Shown: in pieces, positions 300 to 55,588 of the stretch
Numbering within the stretch: the stretch's first letter is position 1
Layout of the letters: every line of letters starts with the position of its first letter
Source of the DNA: Naegleria gruberi
Taxonomy: Eukaryota
Assembly (NCBI GenBank): GCA_000004985.1
Contig: GG738886.1
Direction: 5' to 3' (one strand)
DNA: 64,000 bases
Translations under genes and position numbers: made by a program
Notes under the pieces: model-generated
Database searches by the model: none
Told to the model about the DNA's origin: nothing
The model's input: only the letters and a program-made list of their open reading frames with translations

Positions 300-3200
300 T
301 CATCTAATAAAAATAGAACACTTACTGGAATAATATGCATGGGTTTTGATGATTGTTGAAATAAAATCCACGTCCCTGATTTCGTAACCACTCATCAACT
401 CAGAGTTTCTAGAAATCTTACATACTACTTCAATATTTCCAATTACGACTTCTCCAAATTTTAAATTGACTTCATCTTCATTTATATTTTCCAAAAAGTC
501 TTCACAAAATTCCCACACTATTTCGACATATTTCTCAATATCAGAAGCATGGGATAGTTCTTTACAACTAAAAACTGTTGCTACAATATTATTATTTCCT
601 TGAATCAATAAAAGTTCGTGGATGTTTTGAAGATTTCCTTTCACTAACAGGATCATCTTGACATTATGATTTGCTTCAATTTGTTTAGGAGAAAATGACA
701 CTATCTGAAACAATTTTGACTTCATTTCCTGAATAATAATATCCCAGTTATCTGGTCGGTGTTCTTCTTCTCTTGCAGTGCATCTATGACATAAGTTGCT
801 AAATTCTTGATCAATACCACAATATTCTAACAATTTTCCAAATGAATAAATATCGCACTTATAAGTATATAAACCTCCTTCTGCTACTTGTGGAGATCTG
901 AAAAAGGTTGTACCTCCAGATGAATTGTCTTCTCCAAGACATATTTTACCGAATCCAAAATCTACAAGTGTAACTACATTCGATGATATCATAATATTTT
1001 TTGCTGAGATGTCTCGATGAACAATATTAAAAGCGTGAACCTTTTTAAGAGCATCAGCTATTTGAATGAGTATTTTGATTTTCTGAAAACGGCTTGGGTT
1101 TGTTTGATTCCATTCTGCCAAGTTTTGGTCTAATTCGTCTTGAATGATATAGATTGTGTTGTTTTCGTCTCGTAATATTGTTTCCACTTGGGCAAGCTCT
1201 TTAAGTTTATACTTAATATTGAGAAATCTTTACATGTTGGTGATTACAAAAGAATTAAAATACTTACATTAGTATAAAAACTTCTCTGTAAAACGGATAA
1301 TCTTGCTTAGCCCTGGGTATTACCTTTACAACCTTATTTTGGTTGTTCCAAAATATTCTATAAACGGTGCCATAAGCTCCCGATCCAATCGGGTTTGTTA
1401 GCTCGGGTAATTTATCTTTGTAAAATACCTTATTAGCAAAGAAATAGGTTTCAACATAATTTTTCATCAATTCATCTAAGTCTGAAATGTTGAATGGTAT
1501 TTCATTATTGCCAATATCTGTGGCACCAGAGGCTTTCAGAATATTGAAAGCTACCATTCTCTCTTGATATTCTCGATCAATAATAGACTCTGCCAACGTT
1601 TTCATCTTGCTCAACATGATATCCGGAAATAATCTCACTACAGAGTCGATTTGATGATCAATATCATCTTTTCCTACTTTCTTTTTCCTCTCTCCATTCC
1701 CGAAATGAGGCTGTTTAAGCTGGAAAAGGAGGCTGAAAAATCCTCCAATATTTCTTATTTTAGAAGAAATAGTTGATTCCCAAAATCCAAAATTAGTCAA
1801 TTTGGATCTTTCGATAATATCATTCTTTTGATCTACTGGATTAGGGAGTTCATTTTTGGGATTTGCAAAATCATAATGCAAGAAATCTCCAAGCTTAGTA
1901 AGGAAAAGCAATTGAATAGATTGAATATTAACTAATCTCAGAAGTAAACAATTCACTACTCTTGAAACTACTCTTTCATTGTATTCTCCCACATCCAATA
2001 TATCTTCAAAGTAAAGTTTGTCTTTGATATCAGAAGAAATTATATGACTATTCGCAATCTTTTTCTTAAACTTTTCACTATTAACAACCATAAACTTTTC
2101 AATTTGTTGGAAAAGCTTATTCTTGGAAATATTGATATCCTCAATTGATTTCTCTTCTATGATTGTTGTTATAATATTGTTCAAGACCTCCAATATTCTA
2201 GTGGAGTAATATTGTGGGAAATCTTGTAATTTTTGAAGGACTAATAGAAGAAGGTGTTCTTGAAATTCGAAAAATTCGCAATCTGGTATTTGGTTCCTTT
2301 TCATTTTGGATTCTAGAGCATTCTTTGCTGATATTCTAAATGAAGGAATATCTCCAAAATACTCTATTACTTGTGTTTGATGGTATTTTTTATACCTTTC
2401 AACGTTACTTTTGTCTTGTTCTTTGTCTACCATATTGTAAAGAATAATGTTAGGTTCAATGTTTTTTTCTTTAAGAATGGACAATATATTCTAAGAAAAT
2501 TAATGAAATCTGTTGGAGAATACTTACTCGATCTGGATATTGAATGTTTGTAAAATCAACAACACAAATGACGACATCTGAGTTTTCAACAAATTCCAAA
2601 GTGTTTGAATCTATTGCCTCACAATTCTTTTGATTTATGCCAGCAGTATCACATAGATTAATATCAAGTTGTAATAATTCATATCCTGGAAGCTGAATGC
2701 TGAATATCTTTTGTTCAAATTCGTCATTCAAATCCTCACTGAAATCTGAATCGAAATTAGCATCACTAGAAAAGCTTTGTTCGTCTAGCTCAGTAACTCG
2801 TTCAAGTTGTTGGGATAGACGATAATACTCCACCTTGTTACCATTCTCACAAATAATAACTCCACTAGTTGATGGTAAAACATCAGAGTGTAGAACTAGT
2901 CCTCCAAGAATACTGTTGATAACAGTTGATTTACCTACTGATGAGCCTCCCACAAGTGTAATTTTGAAAGTGGAGTCCAACGGTTTTTTAAATGTCAATA
3001 AATGTTGAATGACATTATTAAAATTATACAACTGATTCGTAATTTCGATCAAGCTTTCTTTAGAGGTTCTCCACTGCGCCATCTCTCCTCTAATTAACTC
3101 ATAATGAACGCTCAATTTGTCCCAAAACTTAGTGACAATAATCTCTCTTAACTTGATATCGGATGCAATGTTCAAAGCCTCTTTGTGTCTTCCTTGCAAT

Positions 3201-3592
3201 GATAAACATACAGCATATAAAGGTTCTAAAATTGATTCATTCCCATTATTAGACATAGACTTAATAGTATTAAGCGCATCTATTCAAGTGTAAAATTAGT
3301 ATCTCAAAAACAACCTACTTTTGCTCCATTCAATTTCATCTGTTAGAAAACCAGGATCCAAGTCTATAAAAGATGCAAGATAACGCTTAATGTTACTGGT
3401 GTCAATTGTATTCACTTGTTCTGAGGGATTCAACTTCAAAAAGTCCAAACATCTAGAACAATAAAATCCAGAGCTTGAGCCAACAACGTGACTGCCCAGT
3501 AAATCACAACATTTACACCAACGGCAACAAGGCGTTAAACGTTCATGGCATAGGCTTACTGCAAAGTTAATAATGTCAAGTGTTGATACCAT
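300..3592 (-). CDS. Multi-exon gene: N-terminal Cys-rich segment, then a mitofusin/dynamin-like P-loop GTPase domain, a helical region and a C-terminal Ser/Thr protein kinase domain. Proposed exons on the minus strand are 3592..3319, 3279..2528, 2490..1268 and 1227..300, about 1059 aa.
   Basis: GTPase motifs: ITLVGGSSVGKSTVINSILGG...LPSTSG (P-loop, close to mitofusin GKSTVINAML..LPSG) and LCDTAGI (DxxG). Kinase motifs: GSGAYGTVY glycine loop, VVKV lysine, HRDISAKN catalytic loop, DFG, and CDIYSFG. Exons are joined in frame by three tiny GT..AG introns at plus-strand 3280..3318 (39 nt), 2491..2527 (37 nt) and 1228..1267 (40 nt). I checked the junctions by hand; the third uses a weak AAG acceptor. 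Confidence 0.6.
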
Positions 3593-5406: not shown

Positions 5407-7242
5407 TTAATGTAAATGGAATGTTCCACCTCCATATGCATAATTCATTCTCTCACGCAACAGAATATCAAATTCCTCTTGACTATTGATGTGTGAAAAG
5501 TCAGCAATCAATCCATGATATTTAAGAGCTGCCATTCGATACTCTTCATCATGATTCAAATCAATAGCCAAATAAAACGCAGGGGATAATTTCAATGCCT
5601 TCATAACAAACTCTCTATTTTCTATCAGATTCTTTGGAATTTGTTGATAGGAGAATTTGTATTGATTCACTTTCATGGACGAAAGCAAAATTTCTTCATT
5701 GTCTGTAAGAAAGTTTGGAACTTGAGTGAAAACTACCTTTCTTTGCAATATCAAGTCAGCGATCTTCTGTTTGAAATCCAAATCTGAAACAAGTGATTCT
5801 GCTAGACTAATATTTGTGAAATTACCGAGGTCTATAACTTTCAAAACGAAATCCTTATCATTCTTGAAGAATGGAAAATATTCAATGCAATTCTGATTTA
5901 CCATAACACATTCCATAGCAAACTGACTGTCTTTTAACAAATCTTCCTTTGCAAATCTCATTAAAGAAGCATCATTTCGAATAACTTCCAAAATTCCCTT
6001 TCTATCATTTTGTTTGAACAACAATTCGAAATCTTTTCGTTTGTTTGGTTTTTTCACTTCCTCTTCTTCAATAAACTCATCATTCTCTTCATAATTACCC
6101 ACCATAAACATGTCATTTGAATCGTCTTCCAATTGTAAACTTTCTGATTTTTCATTTTCTTTAAAATTCTCAAAACTTTCATCCTTAATTAGTTCAGCAG
6201 GAATGTAAGGAAGAATTTTACAATCATGATTGAGTGCTTTCAATATAAATTGCTTATTATTTCTCAATTCTGATTGTTCAAGTAAGCTTGGATCATGTTG
6301 CAAACAGTTCAATAAGATTTCTTCATCATTGTTTCTAATACTTTCAGATAGATATCTGAAAGCTAAATAATTAATTTTCACTAATTGAAGGCAAAAATCT
6401 CTATCTTGCAATAAATCTATACCTTTAACATGATCCAGGAGGGTTATGTTGACTGGAGCAATTGCCAAAATTATTTCTCTATCTTTCTTCAATTCGTCTT
6501 TCATATTTGAATTCGAATAGACATTCACATTTCTTTTAATTGCTTCTAAAACCACATGTTTATCCTTAAAAAGATAAGAAAGTGAAGTGTTGTAATGCTG
6601 AACTAGATATTCTACAGCTATTTCAGGATATCTTTCGAATACAGATTCTTCCAAAGTTATTGAATCTGATTTGACAGCTGCCATAATAATTTCAGGATCA
6701 TTTTTCAAATCCTCACTAGCATACAGATAAGCCCACCCATCATTCTTCACAGCAGATAAAACAATTCTCTTGTCTGATTGACATTCCTCTGACAGAAACG
6801 CCAAATGTCTTCCTTGAAATTGAACGAGCATGTGAGCAATGTCAAGATCTGATTTAGAAGTTTCTGAGGATTGAAGGAGAGGATCGCAGAACCATTCCTT
6901 GAATGCCAGTTCGAATAATGATTTTCTGTTCAAAATAAATGGTAAATCTCTGACAAGATTCGAATATTTTGGACGAATTGATTTCATTGCTTGAATCACC
7001 AAATAATCATCAAATAAGAATTCAATAGGAAGAAAGTTGACTTGCAACAGTGAATTTGAAACTCTTCTCTCACGTTGTTCTTTAATATATTTCACTTTAG
7101 CTTCAATCCATTTCGAATAACCTTTTCCCAGTTGCGTAAACTTTTCTTTCAACTTTATCCGAAAGGAATTTTGATTATTTGATAGATAAAACGGTTCTTC
7201 CACCAGAATGAGAATGCACTGCTGCTCATGATCTTGTGACAT
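5407..7242 (-). CDS. Repeat protein of 611 aa with DUF4116-like repeats of roughly 35 aa.
   Basis: Single ORF. Recurrent motif of the form [RK]xxxEI(V/I)LxAVKxxGxALxYASxxLxNDxEI. An acidic low-complexity linker lies mid-protein. The gene at 60212..62089 is a paralogous architecture. Confidence 0.55.
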   Translation of the reverse strand: MSQDHEQQCILILVEEPFYLSNNQNSFRIKLKEKFTQLGKGYSKWIEAKVKYIKEQRERRVSNSLLQVNFLPIEFLFDDYLVIQAMKSIRPKYSNLVRDLPFILNRKSLFELAFKEWFCDPLLQSSETSKSDLDIAHMLVQFQGRHLAFLSEECQSDKRIVLSAVKNDGWAYLYASEDLKNDPEIIMAAVKSDSITLEESVFERYPEIAVEYLVQHYNTSLSYLFKDKHVVLEAIKRNVNVYSNSNMKDELKKDREIILAIAPVNITLLDHVKGIDLLQDRDFCLQLVKINYLAFRYLSESIRNNDEEILLNCLQHDPSLLEQSELRNNKQFILKALNHDCKILPYIPAELIKDESFENFKENEKSESLQLEDDSNDMFMVGNYEENDEFIEEEEVKKPNKRKDFELLFKQNDRKGILEVIRNDASLMRFAKEDLLKDSQFAMECVMVNQNCIEYFPFFKNDKDFVLKVIDLGNFTNISLAESLVSDLDFKQKIADLILQRKVVFTQVPNFLTDNEEILLSSMKVNQYKFSYQQIPKNLIENREFVMKALKLSPAFYLAIDLNHDEEYRMAALKYHGLIADFSHINSQEEFDILLRERMNYAYGGGTFHLH

Positions 7243-17805: not shown

Positions 17806-17878
17806 TGCCGACACCAGGGATCGAACCAGGGACCTTAAGATCTTCAGTCTTACGCTCTCCCAACTGAGCTATGTCGGC
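17806..17878 (-). tRNA. tRNA-Phe (anticodon GAA).
   Basis: Reverse complement reads GCCGACATAGCTCAGTTGGGAGAGCGTAAGACTGAAGATCTTAAGGTCCCTGGTTCGATCCCTGGTGTCGGCA. It has a 7-bp acceptor stem, a D-arm AGCTCAGTTGGGAGAGC, an anticodon loop CTGAAGA, a TΨC arm GGTTCGATCC, and 73 nt without encoded CCA. Confidence 0.85.
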
Positions 17879-29015: not shown

Positions 29016-29134
29016 GGCTACGGCCATATCACGATGAATGCACCTCATCCCGTCCGATTTGAGAAGTTAAGCATCGTCGAGCCACATCAGTACTGAGGTT
29101 GGAGACAACTTGGGAACCTGTGGTGCTGTAGTCT
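29016..29134 (+). rRNA. 5S ribosomal RNA gene, copy 1, 119 nt.
   Basis: GGCTACGGCCATATCACGATGAATGCACCTCATCCCGTCCGATTTGAGAAGTTAAGCATCGTCGAGCCACATCAGTACTGAGGTTGGAGACAACTTGGGAACCTGTGGTGCTGTAGTCT. It carries canonical 5S helices and a box C-like CCGTCCGAT. A T4 Pol III terminator follows immediately. Confidence 0.9.
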
Positions 29135-31300: not shown

Positions 31301-31419
31301 GGCTACGGCCATATCACGATGAATGCACCTCATCCCGTCCGATTTGAGAAGTTAAGCATCGTAGAGCCACATCAGTACTGAGGTTGGAGACAACTTGGGA
31401 ACCTGTGGTGCTGTAGTCT
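31301..31419 (+). rRNA. 5S ribosomal RNA gene, copy 2, 119 nt, with one substitution relative to copy 1.
   Basis: Identical to copy 1 except C>A at GTAGAGCC. About 15 nt upstream and about 30 nt downstream are also conserved between copies. T5 terminator. Confidence 0.9.
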
Positions 31420-34118: not shown

Positions 34119-35498
34119 TTAATAGTTTCTAATGTTGATTGATTGTTTGATTGGGGAAGTTGAGGTGGATGGAGAATATGGATAACCTTGTTGATAATCA
34201 TTGTCCAAAACAGCAAGGAATTTCTTAAGGATGGCAGTTTGACCATCAATTCTCAAAGTGAAATCACGGTTGACATTTCTCCATGTGGAGCTATTACCCT
34301 TCTTTGGTGGGAAGACATAAGGTGGATTTGGATAATCAGAACCTCTCCAGTTACCAGTACTCATCATTAAAATGTTATCATCAATAACCCAATACTTTTC
34401 ATGTGAAAATTCCAAACATTGCTTGGCAGACAAGACAACATTAATATTGTTATCAACAAGCTTTCTATAACATTGATAAGCTTCAAGAGCTTCGGATTTA
34501 GCAAAGACATAGTGAGAAGCGAAAATCTTCAAATTGATACCCTTATTACCCAATTGGATAACATAATCACAGAGGTCAGGATGAGAAATTTCATAAATAC
34601 TAATCTTCAATGATTTTTTAACTTGATTCAAAGCAGACATCAAGAATCCATAAGCATAATCAGGACTAGCACTGATAGAAATATTGTAATTATCATTGAA
34701 TTCTTGAATATCACCAGAGGAAGCATCACAGTTTGCAAAGTGCATATTTTCTGGAATGGTGACAGTAGCAGTTGAGGTTTGAATCATATGAATATCACTT
34801 TTAGAATATTGACTATAATCAACATCCAATGGAACACCATGGAAGAAATCATATTCGAAAACTCCTTGAGAGAATTTAACAACACCAGCAGCATTATTGC
34901 ATTCATTAACCAAAATACCAGCTTCTCTGTTTCTTCTGAAACTAGTTTGAGAAAAGTTAATACTAGAAATGGCAGATTTACAACCATCAATAGTGATATA
35001 TTTGGCGTGTAAGAAAGTAGTGGTTGTGTAATATCTGACATCAGCACCTGCAATCTTTAAATATGTCAACAAGTCCATCTTTCCAGAACACATCTTGTCA
35101 TCATACTTGTTAGTTAAGAGACGAACTTTAACACCATGTTGAACAATTTGATTAATTAAAACTTGGAAAATTGGGAATTTTTCATTATTCAACAAGTCAG
35201 TAGCAGAACAACCCATACATCCATCTTTTGGATAGGTACATCCACTCCAACTGTCAAATCCTGGAATTGCAATATCAATAGTCTTCTTGGCACTCATCAC
35301 AAGTTCAGTCTCTTCCTTTGTAGAGTGATCCGGAGAGAAAAGAGGAGTTAAACCAATATTAGCACGAGGGATATTGAGAGGAAGGAAAGGACTATTGTAG
35401 GTGGTATTTTGTAAATCTGCCAACACGAGTTGTGTTGTTGTGAACAAAATTATTGCACACAACAAGGTGGCAAGAGAAATTTTGCTGATGGCTTTCAT
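34119..35498 (-). CDS. Secreted phospholipase-D superfamily protein with two HKD motifs.
   Basis: Signal peptide MKAISKISLATLLCAIILFTTTQLVLA. HKD motif 1 is FLHAKYITIDG and HKD motif 2 is SHEKYWVIDDN. Several N-glycosylation sequons. Confidence 0.7.
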   Translation of the reverse strand: MKAISKISLATLLCAIILFTTTQLVLADLQNTTYNSPFLPLNIPRANIGLTPLFSPDHSTKEETELVMSAKKTIDIAIPGFDSWSGCTYPKDGCMGCSATDLLNNEKFPIFQVLINQIVQHGVKVRLLTNKYDDKMCSGKMDLLTYLKIAGADVRYYTTTTFLHAKYITIDGCKSAISSINFSQTSFRRNREAGILVNECNNAAGVVKFSQGVFEYDFFHGVPLDVDYSQYSKSDIHMIQTSTATVTIPENMHFANCDASSGDIQEFNDNYNISISASPDYAYGFLMSALNQVKKSLKISIYEISHPDLCDYVIQLGNKGINLKIFASHYVFAKSEALEAYQCYRKLVDNNINVVLSAKQCLEFSHEKYWVIDDNILMMSTGNWRGSDYPNPPYVFPPKKGNSSTWRNVNRDFTLRIDGQTAILKKFLAVLDNDYQQGYPYSPSTSTSPIKQSINIRNY

Positions 35499-36637: not shown

Positions 36638-39600
36638 ATGCCACAAGATAAAAGTGAACTTGACTGTGGTAAAGTACTTACTAATCAGGATAGTGGTGTT
36701 GGGTTTAGCACTATCAATACTAGTCCCCCGCATCAACAGTCGAGCGATTGTATTTCTAACATGAAGGAAAACCTAATTCCGGAGGTGAAGAATAATGATG
36801 AATTATCTGCATCATCTATTACTCTTGCTGTTCCGAACATTGATTGTGGAAGTAATACGACAAAGATGCCAACAACAAGTACTCTCGTTGTGGATGATAT
36901 CATTAAAAATAGGAGGAATATTGATGATAAAAGGTCTCTTGAAAATCGAGGAACGAGAACAGCCAGCCTGTCAATGCCAACAACTAATTATTTATTTCCA
37001 TCATCAAAAAGTAACTTAATTCCAATATTACCAAAAACTAAGGATCAGGAAAAGGAGAAAATGCAGAAAAACAAACTAACTTTTCAAAATTCGAGAAATT
37101 CTCTTTTTCAAAACTCTAACAAAACAACTTACACAAAAGTTGAAATGAACAAACAATCTAACGATAAGAGAGGACAAACGAAAATAGATCACCAACCCAA
37201 AAATCTAGAATTGCCCTCATTAGCATCAATTGTTTTAACACCAAATACTCCTAACTCGGTATCTAATGTCAATATTGAAACAGACGAATCAGAAATTAAC
37301 CCAATACTGGAATCAGTACCATTCTTTATATTTTTAAAAATTGGAATACTCAAGGAAAACTCAGAACCTAAATATTTAGAGGCTTATAGGGCTCTTTCTC
37401 AACAAAATCTATTCTTTATGACCTCTTGGTTTAGGTATTTTGGGATATATTTTGTTTTAGTATTTTTAACAATGTACAAGCTTGTCGGGATGCGAACAAT
37501 CTCTAGCTCTGTACTTTGCAACTTTTGCAGTGGAGGTTTTTAGTAATCTTTATCTGAATTATTTAACATGCTGTAAATCTCCAACTAGGGCAAGGAAGAA
37601 TGTAATTCATTTATGCAGAACAGTTCTGTCAACCTCTTATGGATTCATAATGCAAATGTATTACACTAAGCTATCCATATATATATTGACAATACTCAAA
37701 TTAATAATTTCTTGTCATATTTTTGGAGACCATCTTATCACCTCCTTAATATCTACAGTAATTTTCGTATCTGGTTCGCTTATTCCAATGATGATTTTGG
37801 GGTATCCAATAGAATCTATAGTAAGCAACGGGATAGTAATGACTTCCATAGCCATTATGTGCTTGTTCTTTTCAAAAATATATGCAGAAGAAAAAAGATA
37901 TCATTATAAACAAAGGTTTGCTTACATGCAGGAAAAGTATTTGAGCAATGAGAAAACTCACATGATTGCAAATATTTCACATGAAGCAAGGTATGTATTA
38001 CCAGTATCAGTTCGAATTAATTCAAATTCACATTTTGGAATTGTTTTAATTATTCCTATGTAGAAATCCATTGCATGGTATTATTGGAGCTTCAACAATT
38101 TTGAGACATGATATGGAAAAGAACAGTCATTCAGATAAAAGAAAAAAAAGAGGAAGAAAGAACAGCATTTTACAATCACCTTCTCATTCACCAATGAATG
38201 CAAAGAAAGGATTCTTACATGTTTCAAATGATGATGGACACTATTCGAGTGATTGTGAATCTTCATGTGGAGATTCAACAGCTGAACAACCGTATCTTGA
38301 ATTGGTGAATGATATTTATAATAATGCCAATTTGTTACTTCACATTTTCAGTACTTCACTTCAAATGACAAGTCTCGAAATGGGAAATATCAAATTGAAG
38401 AATGAACCATTCAATTTATTGGACACAATTGAATCAGTAATTTCAGTATTTTATAATATTGCAGCAGACAAGAATGTTTCACTTCACAGTTTTATTAATT
38501 TAAATTCTCTTCCAAACCAAGTGATAGGTGACCACGTTAGAGTTTCTCAAATATTAATGAACTTTGTGTCAAACTCTATCAAATATTCATCTAATGAGCA
38601 AGGAGAGAGTTCAGTAATTCTCAAGTGTGATATTTGTTCAGATGAAGAGCTCAAAAAGTTGAATGTTGAAAAAGAAAAAATAATTGAAATGTTAGACGAT
38701 AAGGAGGACATTGTTTTCGTTAAAATTGATTGTATTGATAATGGAAAAGGAATTGAAAAGGATAATATCAACAAGTTATTTAAAGCATTCCAAACTTTTG
38801 ATTTGAAATCAGCAAGTAACATGGACACAGGTGGAACAGTATTTGATCAATACTATTTGAAATCAATTTCAGGTAATACAAAAGGATCGAATGGAACGAG
38901 TTTACTATTGAGTAACAGAACAGGAGTTGGATTGAATATTAGCAAGCAACTTATTGAGAAGATGAAAGGATCTATTATAGTTAGCAGCGAAATAGGTAAA
39001 GGCACGACAATGTCTGTAATATTTCCTTTAAAGATAGCACCAACTCAATCTGCACAAAATCAAAGACTTGAAGAACTTAGTATAGATTTAGAAGATTTCA
39101 ACGTATTAATTATTGACAATGATGCACTCTTTTTGGATATAATGAAGGACTATGTTGCTCATATTTGTGCTAAAACTACGGTTACCACTGTTATAGACCC
39201 GAAAAGTATTACGGATATTGATGAGTCAAAACCATTGGTAGTAATTTATTCTGAACATCTCCATGCAGAAGTGAAACAAATCCTAAAATTGGTTTCTGTA
39301 GAAAAGATATTGATACCCATTGGATTGAGAGGAAGGACTAGAAAATATGCAACTATGAAGTATATTATCAAACCTGTAAAGGTTGACGATATGATAAGCG
39401 TATTGAACGAAAAACTCGACAAGCAAAAGAAGAAGATTAATTGTCAAAATATTATTACTCCACCTCCAGAGATAAATATCACAACTGATAATGTTCCAAC
39501 TATAGAGGTAGTAATACCAGAACCTGTACCTTCTAAACGAATACTGATAACAGATGATAATTTAATTAACAGAAAAGTGATGGAAAAGATGGTTCGATTG

Positions 39601-39915
39601 TTGGGATTTACTGAAGTTGATTGTGCATCGAATGGATTGGAATGTTTTGAAATGTACAAACAAAAACAATATTCAATCATTTTATTGGACTTGTTGATGC
39701 CAGTCATGTGTGGCAAGCAGAGTGTGAAACATATTCGAGAATTTGAAGAGAGTGAAGGAAGAAAACGAACACCAGTAATTGCCATCACTGCCAACATTTG
39801 GGAATCAGTTGATACTCTCTCACAACTTGGATTTGACTCTGTCATTTACAAACCAATCCTTATTGAAAAATTGAGGGAGGAAGTTGAACGGTTAACGCAA
39901 GAAAGCAACTCATAG
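36638..39915 (+). CDS. Hybrid histidine kinase A. It has a low-complexity N-terminus, a TM region, HisKA, HATPase_c and a C-terminal receiver domain. Exons are 36638..37990 and 38064..39915, with an apparent frameshift near 37478.
   Basis: H-box IANISHEAR|NPLHGIIGAS is split by the intron at 37991..38063. N-box LMNFVSNSIKY. G1 DNGKGI. G2 GTGVGLNISKQL...GKGTT. REC domain ILITDDNLINRK...LLDLLMP...YKP. It is colinear with the downstream paralog except for a frame change between MYK in frame 2 and TSLSGCEQ in frame 0. Confidence 0.65.
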
Positions 39916-40026
39916 CCCAAATATCAACAACCTACATAACAGTACCACATTTTTGGATGGTTTTTTTGGTGGATATAATTGTTTTTATTAAGGCCAAATA
40001 ATTCGCAAAATTAATATTTAAAAAAA

Positions 40027-43000
40027 ATGAATACATTGAAACCCCACAACGTGACTGGAACGAATTGTACCACGAGTTCTATCGGATCTTCATCCACAGT
40101 TGGAGACTTGGGAAATAGCAGTCTACAACAAATAAATCAAAAGTTTATTAGGGAAGATACAAAACCTACTCCTTCATTATCGGAAATCACTAATAATAAC
40201 AGAAACACAAATAATTTATTATCACCTTCTTCAACAACAAGTCCAACAAGTAGCAGAAGCATTCCAAAAACTAAATCTCCAATATCAAGATGGGATTCAG
40301 TACCTATTATCTCTTCGACAACTAACGTTTCAATAACAAATACTGAAGATATCTCTCCAAAGAGAAGTGAAAAACTCTCCCCAATAATTGTCCCAGAAAC
40401 AGCTGGTGTGTTTGAGGTGAGTTCAACACCCAGAAAGTCGTCCAGAATTAATGAACCACCACCCTCAACAAGAAACTCAATCATCCTCACACCAACAAAC
40501 TCCAAATTCATTTCTCAAACAAGCATACCTTTGGATGTGGACGATTCGAATGATAATAGTAATGAACAGATTCTTTCCTCAATTTCACTTTTTCAATTTA
40601 TCCAACTAATCATGCAAAAAAATCCTAACCCTAAATTTAGAGAAGCCCATCGACAAATTTCACAGCAAAATATTTATTCAATTACCAAATGGTTTAGCGT
40701 TTTGACTTTATATTTTTGTTTACTATTTATTGGAATGTACATAACATCAGAAAGTTCAGCATCTCCTATTGTATTTTTTGGCCTTTTTCCATTTGAAGTA
40801 GCCAACAATATGATATGCAATTATATAACTTGCTGTAAAGCTAGATCGGTTTATGCGAAAGCATCCATTCATATCTATAGAGCTGTTATCATTGCAACAC
40901 TTGCATTTATTTGGCAATATTTTTACCACGATATGCCTTTCTACCTGCTTACAATGATAAAACAAATCATTGCTTGTCACGTTTATGGAGAGGAAATTCT
41001 AATATCTTCAACTGCGTCTATAATCATTAGTACAGGAGCAATCTATCCACTCTATGTTCTGAATCAAGGAACAAAGAAGGTTATTGAGGTTTTCTTTTTA
41101 ATGGTGTCTGCTTCTGTGATAAGTTTGTTCTTTGCCTATGTTTATGCAGAAGAGAAGAGAAATCATTACAAACAAAGGTTTGCTTACATGCAGGAAAAGT
41201 ATTTGAGTAATGAGAAAACTCACATGATTGCAAATATTTCACACGAAGCAAGGTATGTAGTACAAGCATCATTTTCAATTAACTCCCATTTTTATCATTC
41301 CTATGTAGAAATCCACTGCATGGTATTATTGGAGCTTCAACAATTTTGAGACATGATATGGAAAAAAACAGTCATCCAGATAAAAGAAAAAAAAGAGGAA
41401 GAAAGAACAGCATTTTACAATCACCTTCTCATTCACCAATGAATGCAAAGAATGGATTCTTACATGTTTCAAATGATGATGGACATTATTCGAGTGATTG
41501 TGAATCTTCATGTGGAGATTCAACAGCTGAACAACCATATCTTGAATTGGTGAATGATATTTATAACAATGCCAATTTGTTACTTCACATTTTCAGTACT
41601 TCACTTCAAATGACAAGTCTTGAAATGGGAAATATCAAATTGAAGAATGAACCATTCAATTTATTGGACACAATTGAATCAGTAATTTCAGTATTTTATA
41701 ATATTGCAGCAGACAAGAATGTTTCACTTCACAGTTTTATTAATTTAAATTCTCTTCCAAACCTAGTATTAGGTGATCATGTAAGGTAAGTGAAATATCA
41801 ATGAGCTTCTAATCACGTCAGTAGAGTTTCTCAAATACTTATGAACTTCATATCCAATTCTATCAAATATTCATCTTCTGAATCTGGAGAGAGCTCAGTA
41901 ATTCTCAAGTGTGATATTTGTTCAGATGAAGAGCTCACATCACTGAACGTAGAGAAGGATAAAATAATAGAAATGCTTGATGATAAGGAGGACATTGTTT
42001 TCGTTAAAATTGATTGTATTGATAATGGAAAAGGAATTGAAAAGGATAATATCGGTAGCTTATTCAAAGCATTCCAAATTTTTGATCTCAAGAATAGTGA
42101 AAATATAACGGATACAAGTGGAACTGTATTTGACCAATACTATTTGAAATCAATTTCAGGTAATACAAAAGGATCGAATGGAACAAGTTACCTATTGAGT
42201 AACAGAACAGGAGTTGGATTGAATATTAGCAAGCAACTTATTGAGAAGATGAAAGGGTGCATTATAGTTAGCAGTGAGGTCGGAAAAGGAACAACCATGT
42301 CAGTGATATTCCCATTCAAAAAGAAAATTGACAATCCAAGTGTTGAACTTGTTATGCAATGTAAAGCATCGCTCAACACTTTCAAAGAGTTTGGAATCTT
42401 TTCATGTCATTATTATTGATAGTGAGACCCACTTTTTGAATCTTTTGGAGGATTATTTACATTTATTGAATCCTAATATAACTATTTTCAAATATGTGAA
42501 CACAGCTAGTATTAAGGAAATTGATTGTTCAAAATCATTGATTGTAATTTACTCTGAAAATCTTCACTATGAAGTCAAACACTTATTCAAGCAGTCAGTG
42601 ATGGAAAAAATTCTAATTCCAATAGGACATCGAGGAAAGATGAGAAGATTCACAAACATGAAATATGTAATCAAACCTCTTAAGGTTGATGAGTTGGTAA
42701 ATGTGTTGAATGAAAAAATTGAGAAACACAAAAAGAGAGTAAGCCATCAAACTACAGATTTTCCACCAGAAATTAAGGTCACAACAGAGAATATTGATTC
42801 TGTGCAGTCTTCTTCAAATAATATGCCTCTAAATGTTGAACCTCCTAGGGTTGAACCAATCACAGATTCCAAAAGAGTTTTAATAACAGATGATAATTTA
42901 ATTAACAGAAAAGTGATGGAAAAGATGGTTCGATTGTTGGGATTTACTGAAGTTGATTGTGCATCGAATGGATTGGAATGTTTTGAAATGTACAAACAAA

Positions 43001-51613: not shown

Positions 51614-54600
51614 ATGTCAATCAGACAAAAACTCTTCCCTCAGCGAAAGCGAATGTCTGGTATTTTTGAATCAGAGCACTCGCCAACTGACGTGGACAGC
51701 CTAAAGAAAAATAGACGAGTTTCGAACGCTTCAGATATGATGTTGAGTCATCCTCCAATCGATCAGCACACCTCCAACCTTCTCAACACTAGTCTCTGTA
51801 ATAATCCCTCCATGTCAGAAGATTCACTCTCTCGAAAAGTTACCATTGGATCATCGACTTGTATTGATAGTAGTACTGGTAGCAGCGAGGTTGATTCATC
51901 ACCAAATAATAATGGTAATACACTCGATATCAAGAGCAGTAGAGGGAAACAAGAGCAATCATCCACAGTGATGATCGCTACTGCTCCTCCTGCTGGTTCT
52001 GATGCGGTAAATGATGATGTTGCTTCTTCTGGCTCATCCAAAAACAGCCTAAAAAACGAAGAGAAAAATGCTTCATTGTTGCCACAACAAGACTCATCAT
52101 CAACAAGTATAAAATCGGACTCATCTTCTCTCAATAACAACAACAATAATAATAATATTAGCAATAATAGTTCAGTATCATCATCATCATCCGCCTCAGT
52201 AGTAGATAATATTGAAGACGATATGACAAAAAACAGATCACTCACATATGCTGTTGGTGATTCCAAATTTAAGGGAATTGGCCCTAATGATGTTAAATCA
52301 CCACAATCACAGAATGCTACTACAGTTTCAACCTTTCTTACCGATGAACAACCATCTACTATTTCTCCAACAACTGCTATGAATAATAGATTCCAAGGAA
52401 TCAGTTCAAAAGACGCCAAACCTACAACCACAACAAGTACTACATCCCAACCAAAGCATGCTAATCCTCCACCAATACAAACAACATCATCCGTATCAAA
52501 TAATGGTAAATCATCAACTCCTACAAATAACAAGCCAGCATCATCAAAACCAGTAGAAAAACCAAGAGTTTCTCAAGACCTTTCAAGAGAAGCAGCTTTA
52601 AAGAAGAAAGCAACAGGAAAAAGCTTAACAATGCCATCTTCATCACAAAACAAAATTGTAGTGATTGGTTGTAGAGGTATTGGTAAATCCGAAATGGTGT
52701 ACAAGTTTTTACACAATGAAATTCGTTTTTATCATCAATTAAAGAAAGATAAGGCTCATCTACTTGAAGAACTTAAAGGTACTTTGGCTTCCGAACAAAA
52801 GACTATTAACGAGAAAAAAACACAATCAGCGTCCAACCAACAGAATGCTACTACCACACCAACAAATAATTTACCATCATCATCGACATCATGCACAATA
52901 ACACCTAAAACTGAACCTTCTCCAACAAAAGTTCAAGACAATTTACCAATAGATCCAGGTGCAATAGTGGAAAATGAAATTGAGTGTGCTCTCAAACCAT
53001 CAGACTCTTTAGAAGTTAGAAAACTGAAATTACTTTTAATGAAGAAAGACCAAGAAATTAAAAAACAAAAAGAAGAAATGGAAAATACCATTCAAGAACT
53101 TTCAAGTATGTGGAAAAAGGAGAGAACAGAAAAGGTCGAACTTGAAGAAGAGTATGTCGAAAAGGAAAATGAGTTGAATCATTATATTTCAGTTGTTGAA
53201 CAGATTCATCACTTGATTAATTTGGATCCAAAGTCAGATGAAATTCCAGAAGCAATTTCTTTCAAACTTCCTGAAAATCCTAATAATGGAATTTTGAGTC
53301 CAAACAGAAAGAGAAAGACCAGTGCCCATGCTGGAGTTATTGCTGCAACACCAAAACAAAATTTATCAACACTTCCACCATCTACTCCAAATGTTGTAAC
53401 ACCAATGAATAATAGAAATAGTCACAATAATAACCACAACGACGACTTCTTTGATCTCCAAAACTTCAACCCTAAAGACCCTGTACCAGTAACACCAATG
53501 TCTTCCCAAAGAAAGGCAAGACATGTCAGAACGGAAAGTACTTTCCAAAAGCTAAGAACAAACCAATATCAAGTTGTTGCTCAAGATTTAAGAAAATCAA
53601 TTGAAGAAGATATTGACGCAGATGTTTCTGATCCAGAAACAAACAGCATTGCTTTAGCTGCAAACGAAACTGATGAGACCACGGACGAAATTAACATGTT
53701 CTTGGCAGATTTTAATAGAACCGAGGAATCCAATTTTGTATTGACAAACAATCCATCCATGAATAGAATTCAAGCTCCACAAGTGAAGAATTCCCTTTCC
53801 AATTCGGAAGATAGTGCTGGAGATGAAGATACCGAGAATGATTATTCAGAAAGTAGTGATATTACTTCTGTTTCATCAACTGCTAGTTCTAACCATTCCC
53901 TTGTTAAAGCTCAATCAACAATGGATGTAAGAGGTGATAGAGGACAACCAGTAGTAGCTAACAGTTTAATTTTACCAAATGTTGGAAAGTCAAAATCTCC
54001 AACAATTGTACAATCTACAGATTACAAGTATGACGAGAACTTGTTTGTAAAATTATTAACCCCAAGTTTCCACCTTACTGAGGGTTTGAGAAAGTTTAAT
54101 ACCGGTAAACCAAAAGATGCTCTCAAGTATCTGATAGAAAATGCAATTTTGCCTGATCCAGAAGCTGGGTTAACTGAAACTAAGGAAAAACCAGAGGCAG
54201 TAATTTCTAGATTTATGGCCATTGCTGATTCTTTGAATAAGGAAAAACTCGGAGAATTTTTGGGAGATGAAAGGAATAATGTCTATCTGGAAGAATTTGT
54301 CAGATTCCATGTTCAAGAGCTGTACAATGAAGAAAAGAAACAAGGTGATGACACTTATTTGAGCAAGTTTGATCGTGCTCTTCGTTCATTTTTCATTCAA
54401 TTCAAATTACCAAAAGAAGGACAACAAGTTACCAGAATTGCAGAGGTCTTTGCCAATGTGTATAGTGAAAATAACAAGAATGATGGAGAACTCAATGGTA
54501 ATGGTGATGCTTGCTATTTACTTGTATGTTCAATGCTCATGGTGAATACACAATTACACAATCCAATTGCGAATATCAAGTTATCGAGAGAGCAATTTGT

Positions 54601-55588
54601 AGAATTATTCTCACAATTCAAAGATATTAACATGAACTTTATTGGATCATGTTACGATACCATCGCAAGAAATGCTATGGTTCTCTATGATGAAGAAGTT
54701 GATTCTGAGGATAGAACAAATTTCGAGTCAGACGATCAGATCGATTTATTCTTCAAATGCTACAAACCAAGAGCAGCATTGCCAGCTTCAGCTAGTGATT
54801 CTCAAATAACAGTTCACAGAGCTATCAAATCTCTGAGTTTGGATGGAGACAAAGTTAAGGAATTGATGGAAAGTGCTATTACATTCTTCTTCAAAGCCAA
54901 AGTTATACATGATGGAGTCATTAATAGAATTCAAATCAAGGACTCTGATCCAAATCTCGAGTTAACAACCACAGAAACTATTACTGAGTCTGGTTTGACA
55001 ATAACAAAAGTCAAGCTCAGGGATCCAACAGAAATTAATAATGAGGCAAAGACTGGTAATTACTTTATCTGTGCTTATAGTGTTGCTGATCGCACAAGCT
55101 TTTTGATTGTTGAGCATATCATCAAAGCAATTAGAAAGGCCAAGAGAAGAGAAAGAAAGGCAGAAAAGAAGAAGAATAAGTCTTCCAAGACAAAGCCTCA
55201 ATATAGCACCTTAACTGGTTCAGTTACCGAGGAATTACTACAAATGCTCAATGGAGATGATAGTGACTACAATAATGACAAGTTTATGGTTCTTGTGGGC
55301 TGTAAAGCTGATGTTCCAGATGACCAAAGACAAGTTTCAAAGAAAGAAGGTGGTGAACTAGCTCTCAAGTACAGTATTCCATTCTTTGAAGTTTCTAATG
55401 GAGATATGTTTGGAATACGGAAAGTTTTCTTGAATGCTATCGATTCCATCAAGAGACAAAATGCTTCATACGTGGATGCAGTCAAACAAATGAATGACTT
55501 CCACAAGAGAATGAATATTGCAAAGCAAAACAAGAAAGGCCAAATAGATGTTAACTCTCTTGCTATACTGCCAAAGTGTTACATTTAA
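51614..55588 (+). CDS. Protein of 1324 aa. It has a Ser/Asn-rich N-terminus, a Ras-like G1 P-loop segment, a coiled coil, a Sec7 (ArfGEF) domain and a C-terminal Ras-like G-domain remainder.
   Basis: G1 KIVVIGCRGIGKSEMVYKF. Sec7 core FKLPKEGQQVTRIAEVFANVY and YLLVCSMLMVNTQLHNP. The C-terminus YFICAYSVADRTSFLIVEHIIKAIRKAK...KFMVLVGCKADVPDD...LALKYSIPFFEVSNGDMFGIRKVFLNAIDSIKRQ is colinear with Ras beta4 through alpha5, that is G4 NKxD and G5 ETSAK. Confidence 0.7.
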   Translation: MSIRQKLFPQRKRMSGIFESEHSPTDVDSLKKNRRVSNASDMMLSHPPIDQHTSNLLNTSLCNNPSMSEDSLSRKVTIGSSTCIDSSTGSSEVDSSPNNNGNTLDIKSSRGKQEQSSTVMIATAPPAGSDAVNDDVASSGSSKNSLKNEEKNASLLPQQDSSSTSIKSDSSSLNNNNNNNNISNNSSVSSSSSASVVDNIEDDMTKNRSLTYAVGDSKFKGIGPNDVKSPQSQNATTVSTFLTDEQPSTISPTTAMNNRFQGISSKDAKPTTTTSTTSQPKHANPPPIQTTSSVSNNGKSSTPTNNKPASSKPVEKPRVSQDLSREAALKKKATGKSLTMPSSSQNKIVVIGCRGIGKSEMVYKFLHNEIRFYHQLKKDKAHLLEELKGTLASEQKTINEKKTQSASNQQNATTTPTNNLPSSSTSCTITPKTEPSPTKVQDNLPIDPGAIVENEIECALKPSDSLEVRKLKLLLMKKDQEIKKQKEEMENTIQELSSMWKKERTEKVELEEEYVEKENELNHYISVVEQIHHLINLDPKSDEIPEAISFKLPENPNNGILSPNRKRKTSAHAGVIAATPKQNLSTLPPSTPNVVTPMNNRNSHNNNHNDDFFDLQNFNPKDPVPVTPMSSQRKARHVRTESTFQKLRTNQYQVVAQDLRKSIEEDIDADVSDPETNSIALAANETDETTDEINMFLADFNRTEESNFVLTNNPSMNRIQAPQVKNSLSNSEDSAGDEDTENDYSESSDITSVSSTASSNHSLVKAQSTMDVRGDRGQPVVANSLILPNVGKSKSPTIVQSTDYKYDENLFVKLLTPSFHLTEGLRKFNTGKPKDALKYLIENAILPDPEAGLTETKEKPEAVISRFMAIADSLNKEKLGEFLGDERNNVYLEEFVRFHVQELYNEEKKQGDDTYLSKFDRALRSFFIQFKLPKEGQQVTRIAEVFANVYSENNKNDGELNGNGDACYLLVCSMLMVNTQLHNPIANIKLSREQFVELFSQFKDINMNFIGSCYDTIARNAMVLYDEEVDSEDRTNFESDDQIDLFFKCYKPRAALPASASDSQITVHRAIKSLSLDGDKVKELMESAITFFFKAKVIHDGVINRIQIKDSDPNLELTTTETITESGLTITKVKLRDPTEINNEAKTGNYFICAYSVADRTSFLIVEHIIKAIRKAKRRERKAEKKKNKSSKTKPQYSTLTGSVTEELLQMLNGDDSDYNNDKFMVLVGCKADVPDDQRQVSKKEGGELALKYSIPFFEVSNGDMFGIRKVFLNAIDSIKRQNASYVDAVKQMNDFHKRMNIAKQNKKGQIDVNSLAILPKCYI

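Follow-up and report, generated by a model that had tools for sequence, protein, structure and literature searches.

A conserved gene of Naegleria gruberi predicted to join a mitofusin/BDLP-class G domain to a protein kinase

Can the movements of a dynamin-type GTPase control a protein kinase that is part of the same polypeptide? This question is raised by a gene at the left end of a 64,000-nucleotide (nt) stretch of the genome of Naegleria gruberi NEG-M (contig GG738886.1 of assembly GCA_000004985.1; the whole of this stretch is referred to below as the window). The gene lies on the minus strand, starts with an ATG at position 3592, and probably extends to at least position 36, so that it would comprise at least five exons and at least ~1,133 amino acids. 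Control of a kinase by a G domain in the same chain is known essentially from ROCO/LRRK2, where the way in which the two are coupled is a matter of continuing debate. An earlier note on this DNA had described the locus as a chimeric gene in which a mitofusin/dynamin-like GTPase is fused to a protein kinase. The explanation that we consider best, with a confidence somewhat better than even, is that the locus is an intact and conserved fused gene with a G domain of the mitofusin/BDLP branch of the dynamin superfamily, and that GTP-dependent dimerization or rearrangement of the GTPase part would turn the kinase on.

The coding sequence is distributed over four minus-strand open reading frame (ORF) pieces (3592-3296, 3256-2471, 2484-1264, and 1187-300) with short AT-rich gaps between them. 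Excision of three GT..AG introns yields a single frame of 1,058 codons that runs to a stop at 302-300, and the claim that three tiny introns restore one frame was borne out (39, 37, and 40 nt). Exon 1 (3319-3592) starts at the first ATG after a stop (start codon, 3592-3590) and encodes residues 1 to 91 plus 1 nt. Intron 1 (3280-3318; 39 nt; GTAGGT..TAG; phase 1) contains in-frame stops. Exon 2 (2528-3279) encodes a pre-G helical segment (residues ~96-196; 3268-2966) and the G domain from G1 to G3; it is followed by intron 2 (2491-2527; 37 nt; GTAAGT..TAG; phase 0), which lies within the G domain (..YPDR|NILS..). Exon 3 (1268-2490; ORF 1264-2484) is an unbroken frame for G4 and G5, the entire helical middle of the protein, and the N-lobe of the kinase, including the glycine-rich loop (G-loop; 1386-1369) and K731 (1326-1324). 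Intron 3 (1228-1267; 40 nt; GTAAGT..AAG; phase 2) is positioned 4 residues past the alpha-C REV motif, and exon 4 (326-1227) encodes what remains of the kinase, followed by the first part of a C-terminal region without a recognized fold (residues ~921-1051; 716-326). Introns 1 to 3 fit the norm of the genome, because the other candidate introns that join long frames in the window are 36 to 74 nt long with GTAAGT or GTATGT donors.

Relatives of the protein provide independent evidence on the gene model. When exon 2 was used as the query in an exhaustive phmmer/HMMER scan, a set of 1.84 billion representative proteins gave 127 matches, of which P0008 (41% identity, 273 aa) and P0009 (53% identity, 128 aa) were close. 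P0008 is encoded on a 3.4-kb metagenome contig (L001; guanine-plus-cytosine [GC] content, 32%) that is colinear with the N. gruberi gene, with 30% identity in the N-terminus (conserved stretch, MSSQQTVKILKRAIELC), 40% in the G domain, and 52 to 56% in the helical middle, until the contig ends in the kinase N-lobe. The ORF on L001 that is equivalent to exon 3 reaches GRGGYGVV..MAVKL, the kinase G-loop and lysine. Another match, P0097, corresponds to KAL9655766.1 (hypothetical protein ABK040_004993), which comes from Willaertia magna, a vahlkampfiid related to Naegleria; it is the only full-length homolog found. It aligns with residues 26 to 920 of the N. gruberi protein (E, 5e-57; 25% identity) and is colinear over ~1,000 residues. 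The domain order is the same, with a Cys-rich N-terminus, pre-G helices, a G domain, a middle that includes GFWES..SK.R, and an active-looking kinase with a C-lobe that appears to be equally shortened. Apart from the low identity, the W. magna protein differs in a shorter G1-G3 insert, the G4 motif NKFD, a clearer B-box-like N-terminus, and extra introns. The same fusion, which the earlier note had proposed to look for in related genomes, is therefore present in W. magna and, in part, on L001.

Intron positions and phases are also shared. L001 has a 46-nt intron at the position and phase of intron 1 (W[S/A]K|) and a 40-nt intron at those of intron 2; W. magna matches intron 2 (50 nt, after residue 330) and intron 3 (59 nt, after residue 793) in position and phase. 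The common layout and the shared introns of the W. magna homolog indicate that the fused gene predates the split between Naegleria and Willaertia. Thus, the term "chimeric" holds in the sense that the GTPase and the kinase are found in one protein, but the gene is an old, conserved fusion rather than a recent or artefactual chimera. Between N. gruberi and L001, the proportion of synonymous differences (pS) was ~0.74 (saturated) and that of nonsynonymous differences (pN) was 0.27 to 0.46; as judged from these codon comparisons, the reading frame is under purifying selection. The parts most conserved with L001 were the helical middle and the linker that leads from it to the kinase (ISDLDELMKNYV.TY.F.NK..Y.D).

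Among the 127 G-domain relatives, a kinase was found only in the W. magna protein. Scans with the family alignment detected no further members on metagenome or viral contigs, and no paralog was found in the 64,000 nt of the window. On the sequences at hand, the family is small and so far confined to vahlkampfiid heteroloboseans, namely, N. gruberi, W. magna, and two environmental contigs. A scan of prokaryotic genomes gave a single weak match to the G domain, on a contig of a Myxococcota metagenome-assembled genome (L004, 3001-3441; JAZKFH010000022.1), with 29% identity to residues 190 to 332.

It might be argued that the fusion is an artefact of conceptual splicing or misassembly, with two adjacent genes or a decaying pseudogene put together in error. 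The status of the gene in public collections is compatible with this. The exhaustive HMMER scan with exon 2 returned no N. gruberi protein, and exact look-up in a 15-billion-protein collection found neither the three spliced models that begin at the initial ATG in exon 3 nor the three unspliced ATG-started ORFs (exons 1, 2, and 3), though all of the tested neighbors in the window were exact matches to public N. gruberi proteins of a 358,576-bp scaffold (EFC41370/D2VP49, EFC41297/D2VP51, D2VP55, D2VP58, D2VP64, D2VP68, and D2VP71). However, the GTPase-kinase junction is located within one exon in N. gruberi, L001, and W. magna; the layout is continuous in the two other genomes or contigs, with shared intron positions and phases; and the frame bears the mark of purifying selection, intact catalytic motifs, and coding-type codon usage in every exon. 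Exon 3 by itself encodes G4/G5, the middle, and, from the kinase, both the G-loop and the catalytic lysine. The fusion is therefore independent of splicing, and a transcript that ended between the GTPase and kinase parts would have to terminate inside this conserved exon. An artefact is thus hardly credible. The gene rather seems to be unannotated or mis-modeled in the reference set, where a partial model (e.g., of the kinase only) is possible, and domain-architecture censuses would miss it, since it is seemingly missing from or mis-modeled in the public protein set.

The 3' end is a different matter. The earlier note had ended the gene at position 300, which was not borne out. The stop at 302-300 sits 22 nt past a GTAAGT donor at 325, and the frame is open for 74 to 89 codons down to position 36 from acceptors at 304, 283, or 259, in a genome with a GC content of 32%. 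The putative intron 4 that would enclose this stop is preferably the 43-nt version (283-325; GTAAGT..ATAG), because the 22-nt alternative (acceptor 304) falls outside the local range of 36 to 74 nt; the 67-nt alternative (acceptor 259) also fits that range. The putative exon 5 (36-282; ~82 codons) has a codon-usage score of +0.05 bits per codon in frame, compared to -0.76 and -0.91 in the other two frames and ~-0.6 in intergenic sequence, and in this respect it resembles exons 1 to 4. The end of the gene is therefore probably beyond 300. A perfect GTAAGT donor (35-30) encloses the next stop (TAA, 34-32), and the gene may therefore even run past the left edge of the window.

The G domain (residues 197-400; 2317-2965) spans intron 2 and contains a complete series of motifs: G1, GGSSVGKS (residue 202; 2950-2927); G2, T229 within LPSTSG (2869-2867); G3, DTAG (residue 302; 2650-2639); G4, NMVD (residue 361; 2436-2425); and G5, SAK (residue 396; 2331-2323). 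The G1/LPSTSG region and the DTAG that had been pointed out in the earlier note are thus present. In the spliced product, Pfam Dynamin_N matched residues 198 to 336 (E, 2.4e-11; 44 bits; cut-off, 27). Pfam MMR_HSR1 also passed its cut-off (1.9e-9), with 35 to 38 bits compared to 44 to 46 bits for Dynamin_N. Because of this second match, and because similarity to Der/EngA appears as well, Pfam names alone leave the class of the G domain open.

Several lines of comparison point to the same class. With the single protein as the query, the best match in the PDB was BDLP (8e-5), followed by Mfn2 (0.012), and the switch I sequence VLHSDVLPST is nearly identical to LLPSDVNPCT of BDLP. A profile of the three family members matched Mfn2 (1.2e-13), BDLP (2.7e-10), Mfn1 (6e-10), and Fzo1 (2e-7), in each case along the full length of the domain, starting at the pre-G helix and reaching G5. 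Matches to Der and Era in the same search were weaker and partial (G1 only or G3-G5 only), as was that to EngA (1.5e-9, partial). In profile-profile comparison with hhalign, the family G region matched a dynamin-like set at 7e-34 (221 columns) and a Der set at 8e-15 (154 columns). Six of the seven nonfamily matches examined from the exon 2 scan were Dynamin_N proteins (E, 1e-18 to 1e-56), and the other, P0016, matched no family. Fold comparison was carried out with an AlphaFold2 (AF2) model, in which the predicted local distance difference test (pLDDT) was 80 to 95 for the G domain and 65 to 83 for the adjacent helices. The top 23 Foldseek matches of this model in the PDB were all of the mitofusin/BDLP class, with 336 to 380 columns aligned to mini-Mfn1 at template modeling scores of 0.47 to 0.53. 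In the model, helices N- and C-terminal of the G domain are predicted to form a bundle of the HB1/neck type, a feature expected of the mitofusin/BDLP branch of the dynamin superfamily. By profile, profile-profile, and fold comparison, the G domain is therefore assigned to the mitofusin/BDLP branch of this superfamily and to neither the Era/Der nor the Roc GTPases, which agrees with the dynamin-family membership that the earlier note had expected from hidden Markov model searches.

Some of the results count against this assignment and, with it, against the explanation favored here. Sequence similarity to Era/Der was also significant, both with NCBIfam and in word-indexed searches, and for the W. 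magna G domain MMR_HSR1 gave better coverage and a slightly better match than Dynamin_N. Moreover, the AF2 model is of a fragment of the Willaertia homolog, which is 25% identical, and was made with a 55-sequence alignment built from dynamin-like matches; a single-sequence AF2 run on the same fragment gave a pLDDT of 37 and was unusable. The pLDDT of the model fell to <50 in the distal helical region, to which the GFWES loop belongs. The word-indexed searches returned only distant kinases with the full protein, only Der GTPases with the nonkinase part, and Der with the family alignment. They also missed P0097, although the query alignment included its first 750 residues, so that negative results from these searches do not imply absence for this family.

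Alternatively, the G domain could be a TRAFAC GTPase of the Era/EngA/EngB type (MMR_HSR1) with lineage-specific helical extensions rather than a domain of the dynamin superfamily, in which case the protein would be a small-GTPase-kinase fusion nearer to ROCO in spirit. Yet the Der and Era matches cover only parts of the domain, while Mfn2, Mfn1, and BDLP span all of it with better scores, and hhalign prefers the dynamin-like set by ~19 orders of magnitude in E-value. Era/Der-type G domains typically have ~45 residues between G1 and G3; in this family the spacing is 70 to 100 residues. Switch I is close to that of BDLP, and there is neither a KH domain nor a second G domain. An Era-type G domain is thus improbable. 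An Era/Der protein as such was rejected as a candidate, given the single G domain, the lack of a KH domain, and an EngA score of 48 bits compared to a curated cut-off of 306.7.

The name mitofusin applies to the protein only in part. The G domain is of the mitofusin/BDLP branch, but identity as a mitofusin proper was rejected for lack of a transmembrane segment and of a heptad repeat 2 (HR2)/Fzo_mitofusin domain. In comparison with the mitofusins Mfn1 and Mfn2 and with Fzo1, the N. gruberi protein has no transmembrane segment and no HR1 or HR2, and it also carries a kinase and a zinc module. At a threshold of E ≤0.1, the full product had no match to the Fzo_mitofusin Pfam domain, and its helical region is followed by a kinase instead. 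Mitofusins have been reported to be limited to a small subset of eukaryotes (PMC10280142); the present host is a heterolobosean. A minus-strand gene 30 kb away (34119-35498) encodes the PLDc protein D2VP64, which carries the UniRef name "mitochondrial cardiolipin hydrolase." The animal protein MitoPLD has a role in the fusion of mitochondria by way of mitofusins. The closeness of D2VP64 to the mitofusin-like gene is probably a coincidence.

Conservation within the protein is highest in the helical middle (residues 401-700; 1417-2316), for which the AF2 models predict helices, with low confidence in the distal part, and which has no match in Pfam or NCBIfam. The loop GFWES..SK.R (GFWES, 1788-1774) is invariant and is followed by a basic patch. 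The order of the parts resembles that of BDLP-type proteins (Nostoc BDLP, Campylobacter DLP1/2, IniA, LeoA, and SynDLP), in which a helix, the G domain, and long helices are followed by a hydrophobic/aromatic loop ~90 to 100 residues before the end of the module and by return helices. BDLP was also the best single-sequence PDB match and has a near-identical switch I; in contrast, sequence similarity to the BDLP type was detectable by hhalign in the G domain only. The GFWES loop and the basic patch are at a position comparable to that of the BDLP membrane paddle, to which the sequence has no similarity, and equivalence of the two is conjecture.

The protein kinase domain (residues 701-920; 717-1416) spans intron 3 and matched Pfam Pkinase at residues 708 to 883 (E, 3.4e-22; 79.5 bits; cut-off, 31.7). 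Its motifs include the G-loop GSGAYG (711), K731, E745, HRDISAKN (820-827, with N827; HRD at 1019-1011), DFG (839; 962-954), SPQ (861), DIYSFG (875), and the Arg of HRP (906). The top PDB matches were the Src, EGFR, and LRRK2 kinases. By these matches, the kinase is tyrosine kinase (TK)- or tyrosine kinase-like (TKL)-like; judging from the completeness of its catalytic motifs, it is apparently active. The domain had been called canonical, which is correct for the catalytic residues but apparently not for the C-lobe, which seems to be shortened by ~30 residues. Only 31 residues (window, ~759-854) separate DIYSFG from the subdomain XI Arg, a feature that is also found in W. magna, and the Pfam alignment ends early, covering profile positions 5 to 187 of 263 in N. 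gruberi and extending to position 210 of 263 in W. magna. For these reasons, the C-lobe seems to be without the alpha-G region. The C-terminal 222 aa had no Pfam match even at E ≤10 and none in NCBIfam. W. magna carries a degenerate second kinase-like domain at the place of the C-terminal ~215 aa of the N. gruberi protein that have no match.

At the other end of the protein, the Cys-rich N-terminus that had been noted was confirmed as a segment (residues 15-48; 3449-3550) with two CxxC pairs, C26/C29 and C45/C48, that are invariant in the alignment of the three members. Profile matches to it were weak: ANCHR-like_BBOX in W. magna (E, 2.9e-4; 21.3 bits; cut-off, 27), CEBP_ZZ in L001 (E, 0.0067; 17 bits; cut-off, 29.8), and no Pfam zinc finger in N. 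gruberi. The segment probably represents a small module that binds zinc. By analogy with TRIM B-boxes, with Mx, GBP, and IRG proteins, and with RIP- and IRAK-type kinases, the protein could be imagined as an innate-defense or stress sensor, in which the zinc module would recruit, the GTPase would oligomerize, and the kinase would signal. The weak B-box-like N-terminus of W. magna, the TK/TKL-like kinase, the appearance of the IRG-like protein GM4951 in the Foldseek list, and the lineage restriction and fast evolution of the family are in accord with such a role. However, the match to the B-box does not reach the cut-off and is missing in N. gruberi, there is no expansion of paralogs in the window and no relative on viral contigs, and the proposal is purely analogical. 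It seems very improbable that this is the function of the protein.

The combination of a G domain with a TKL-type kinase in one polypeptide is reminiscent of the ROCO proteins (LRRK2, LRRK1, and Dictyostelium Roco4), and LRRK2 was among the better PDB matches of the kinase. Nonetheless, the Roc profile of Pfam matched only the P-loop (residues 197-220; E, 0.083), and there were no matches to COR, LRR, ankyrin, or WD40 domains. A ROCO protein was rejected as a candidate because of this P-loop-only Roc match and the lack of a COR domain. Since the G domain is not a Ras-like Roc domain and none of the accompanying domains were found, the origin of the N. gruberi protein appears to be independent of ROCO, in line with the distinction from Roc-based combinations that had been drawn before. 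Literature searches also supported the suggestion that the architecture had not been described. No dynamin- or mitofusin-type GTPase fused to a kinase was found in them, and ROCO/LRRK2 was the sole GTPase-kinase class that surfaced; the homologous W. magna sequence is public as a "hypothetical protein." Two eukaryote-wide surveys of the dynamin superfamily explicitly left out the mitofusin/FZL/BDLP branch (PMC10280142 and PMC11789081). The parts of the N. gruberi protein are all of known kinds, and it is their combination, conserved in at least the Naegleria and Willaertia lineages, that appears to be undescribed.

How might the GTPase and the kinase work together? Mitofusins, BDLP, and other dynamin-superfamily proteins are activated by nucleotide-dependent dimerization, and their helical bundles hinge during the GTP cycle. 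By analogy, the GTPase and the helical middle would most likely act as a GTP-gated dimerization or assembly switch. G-G dimerization, rearrangement of the bundle, or both would pair the two attached kinase domains, or would reposition the linker helix and release the N-lobe, and so turn the kinase on. The GTP-gated kinase switch is proposed because dynamin-superfamily proteins dimerize with nucleotide and because the last helix of the bundle region enters the kinase N-lobe directly, via a strongly conserved linker. The switching may, as a conjecture, take place on a membrane that is contacted by the GFWES loop; this site is suggested because the invariant loop and the basic patch lie roughly where BDLP has its membrane paddle. 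In ROCO proteins, nucleotide-dependent dimerization has been proposed to govern kinase output, in accordance with the concept of GTPases activated by dimerization (GAD) and with control of the kinase in cis (PMC6337361).

Further points must be set against the proposed switch in addition to those on the class of the G domain. The G4 motif of N. gruberi is NMVD, with Met in place of the usual Lys/Arg, and is NKFD in L001 and W. magna; this lineage-specific loss of the G4 lysine might alter nucleotide affinity. The apparent absence of ~30 residues from the kinase C-lobe may make substrate handling atypical. For the membrane step, no convincing transmembrane segment was found; the top 19-residue Kyte-Doolittle mean was 1.6, in a helix with R, N, and Q among its residues. 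Finally, the direction of control, from the GTPase to the kinase, is assumed by analogy, and the reverse direction is also a candidate.

In the opposite arrangement, the protein would be mainly a membrane-remodeling or tethering dynamin-like GTPase that is regulated by its own kinase, through autophosphorylation of the G domain or bundle or through phosphorylation of partners at the site of remodeling. Dynamin-superfamily proteins are commonly regulated by phosphorylation, and those of the mitofusin/BDLP class, which have a G domain and bundle similar to those described here, are mechanochemical membrane tethers. If the helical middle were the working part of such a machine, it would be expected to be the best-conserved region, as it is, with the GFWES loop invariant. 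On the other hand, the protein has neither a transmembrane segment nor a demonstrated membrane-binding element. The tightly conserved linker into the kinase suggests conformational coupling, which is neutral as to direction. We regard this arrangement as unlikely, though it deserves serious attention. A GTPase that gates the kinase is the arrangement that we prefer. A more far-reaching version, to which we lend tentative credence at most, is that cis-regulated GTPase-kinases evolved a second time, independently, and that the heterolobosean proteins form this class ("dynamin-like kinases"), in which GTP-driven G-G dimerization and hinge motion of a mitofusin/BDLP-type module would directly switch the kinase, possibly on a membrane.

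Other features of the window were also recorded. The immediate neighbor of the fused gene, D2VP49 (5407-7242, minus strand), consists of DUF4116 repeats (five stretches; E, 2e-53). A second GTPase-related fusion is encoded at 51614-55588 (plus strand), where the 1,324-aa ORF NAEGRDRAFT_80719 (D2VP71) combines a Sec7 Arf guanine nucleotide exchange factor domain (820-1021) with a C-terminal Ras-family GTPase (1221-1280). Two candidate introns on the plus strand (37991-38063 and 41253-41308) have the donor GTATGT in common and share the same last 12 nt at the acceptor, ATTCCTATGTAG. The first is just upstream of an ORF for a hybrid histidine kinase/response regulator (38071-39915), and the second is near the 3' end of the ORF at 40027-41349; the introns with shared ends near 38071-41349 may reflect a local tandem duplication. 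RNA genes in the window include two 5S rRNA genes on the plus strand (29016-29134 and 31301-31419), which are 2.3 kb apart among protein-coding genes, and a tRNA-Phe(GAA) gene on the minus strand (17806-17878).

The family of the fused gene is small and restricted to one lineage, and kinase fusions of unusual kinds are no rarity among protists. The finding nevertheless places a mitofusin/BDLP-class G domain in the Heterolobosea, in a branch of the superfamily that was omitted from both surveys (PMC10280142 and PMC11789081). If the proposed explanation is true, the heterolobosean proteins would be a natural counterpart to ROCO/LRRK2 that is made from a mechanochemical GTPase instead of a Ras-like one, and would provide, beside ROCO/LRRK2, an independent natural experiment on how nucleotide-dependent dimerization can gate a kinase.

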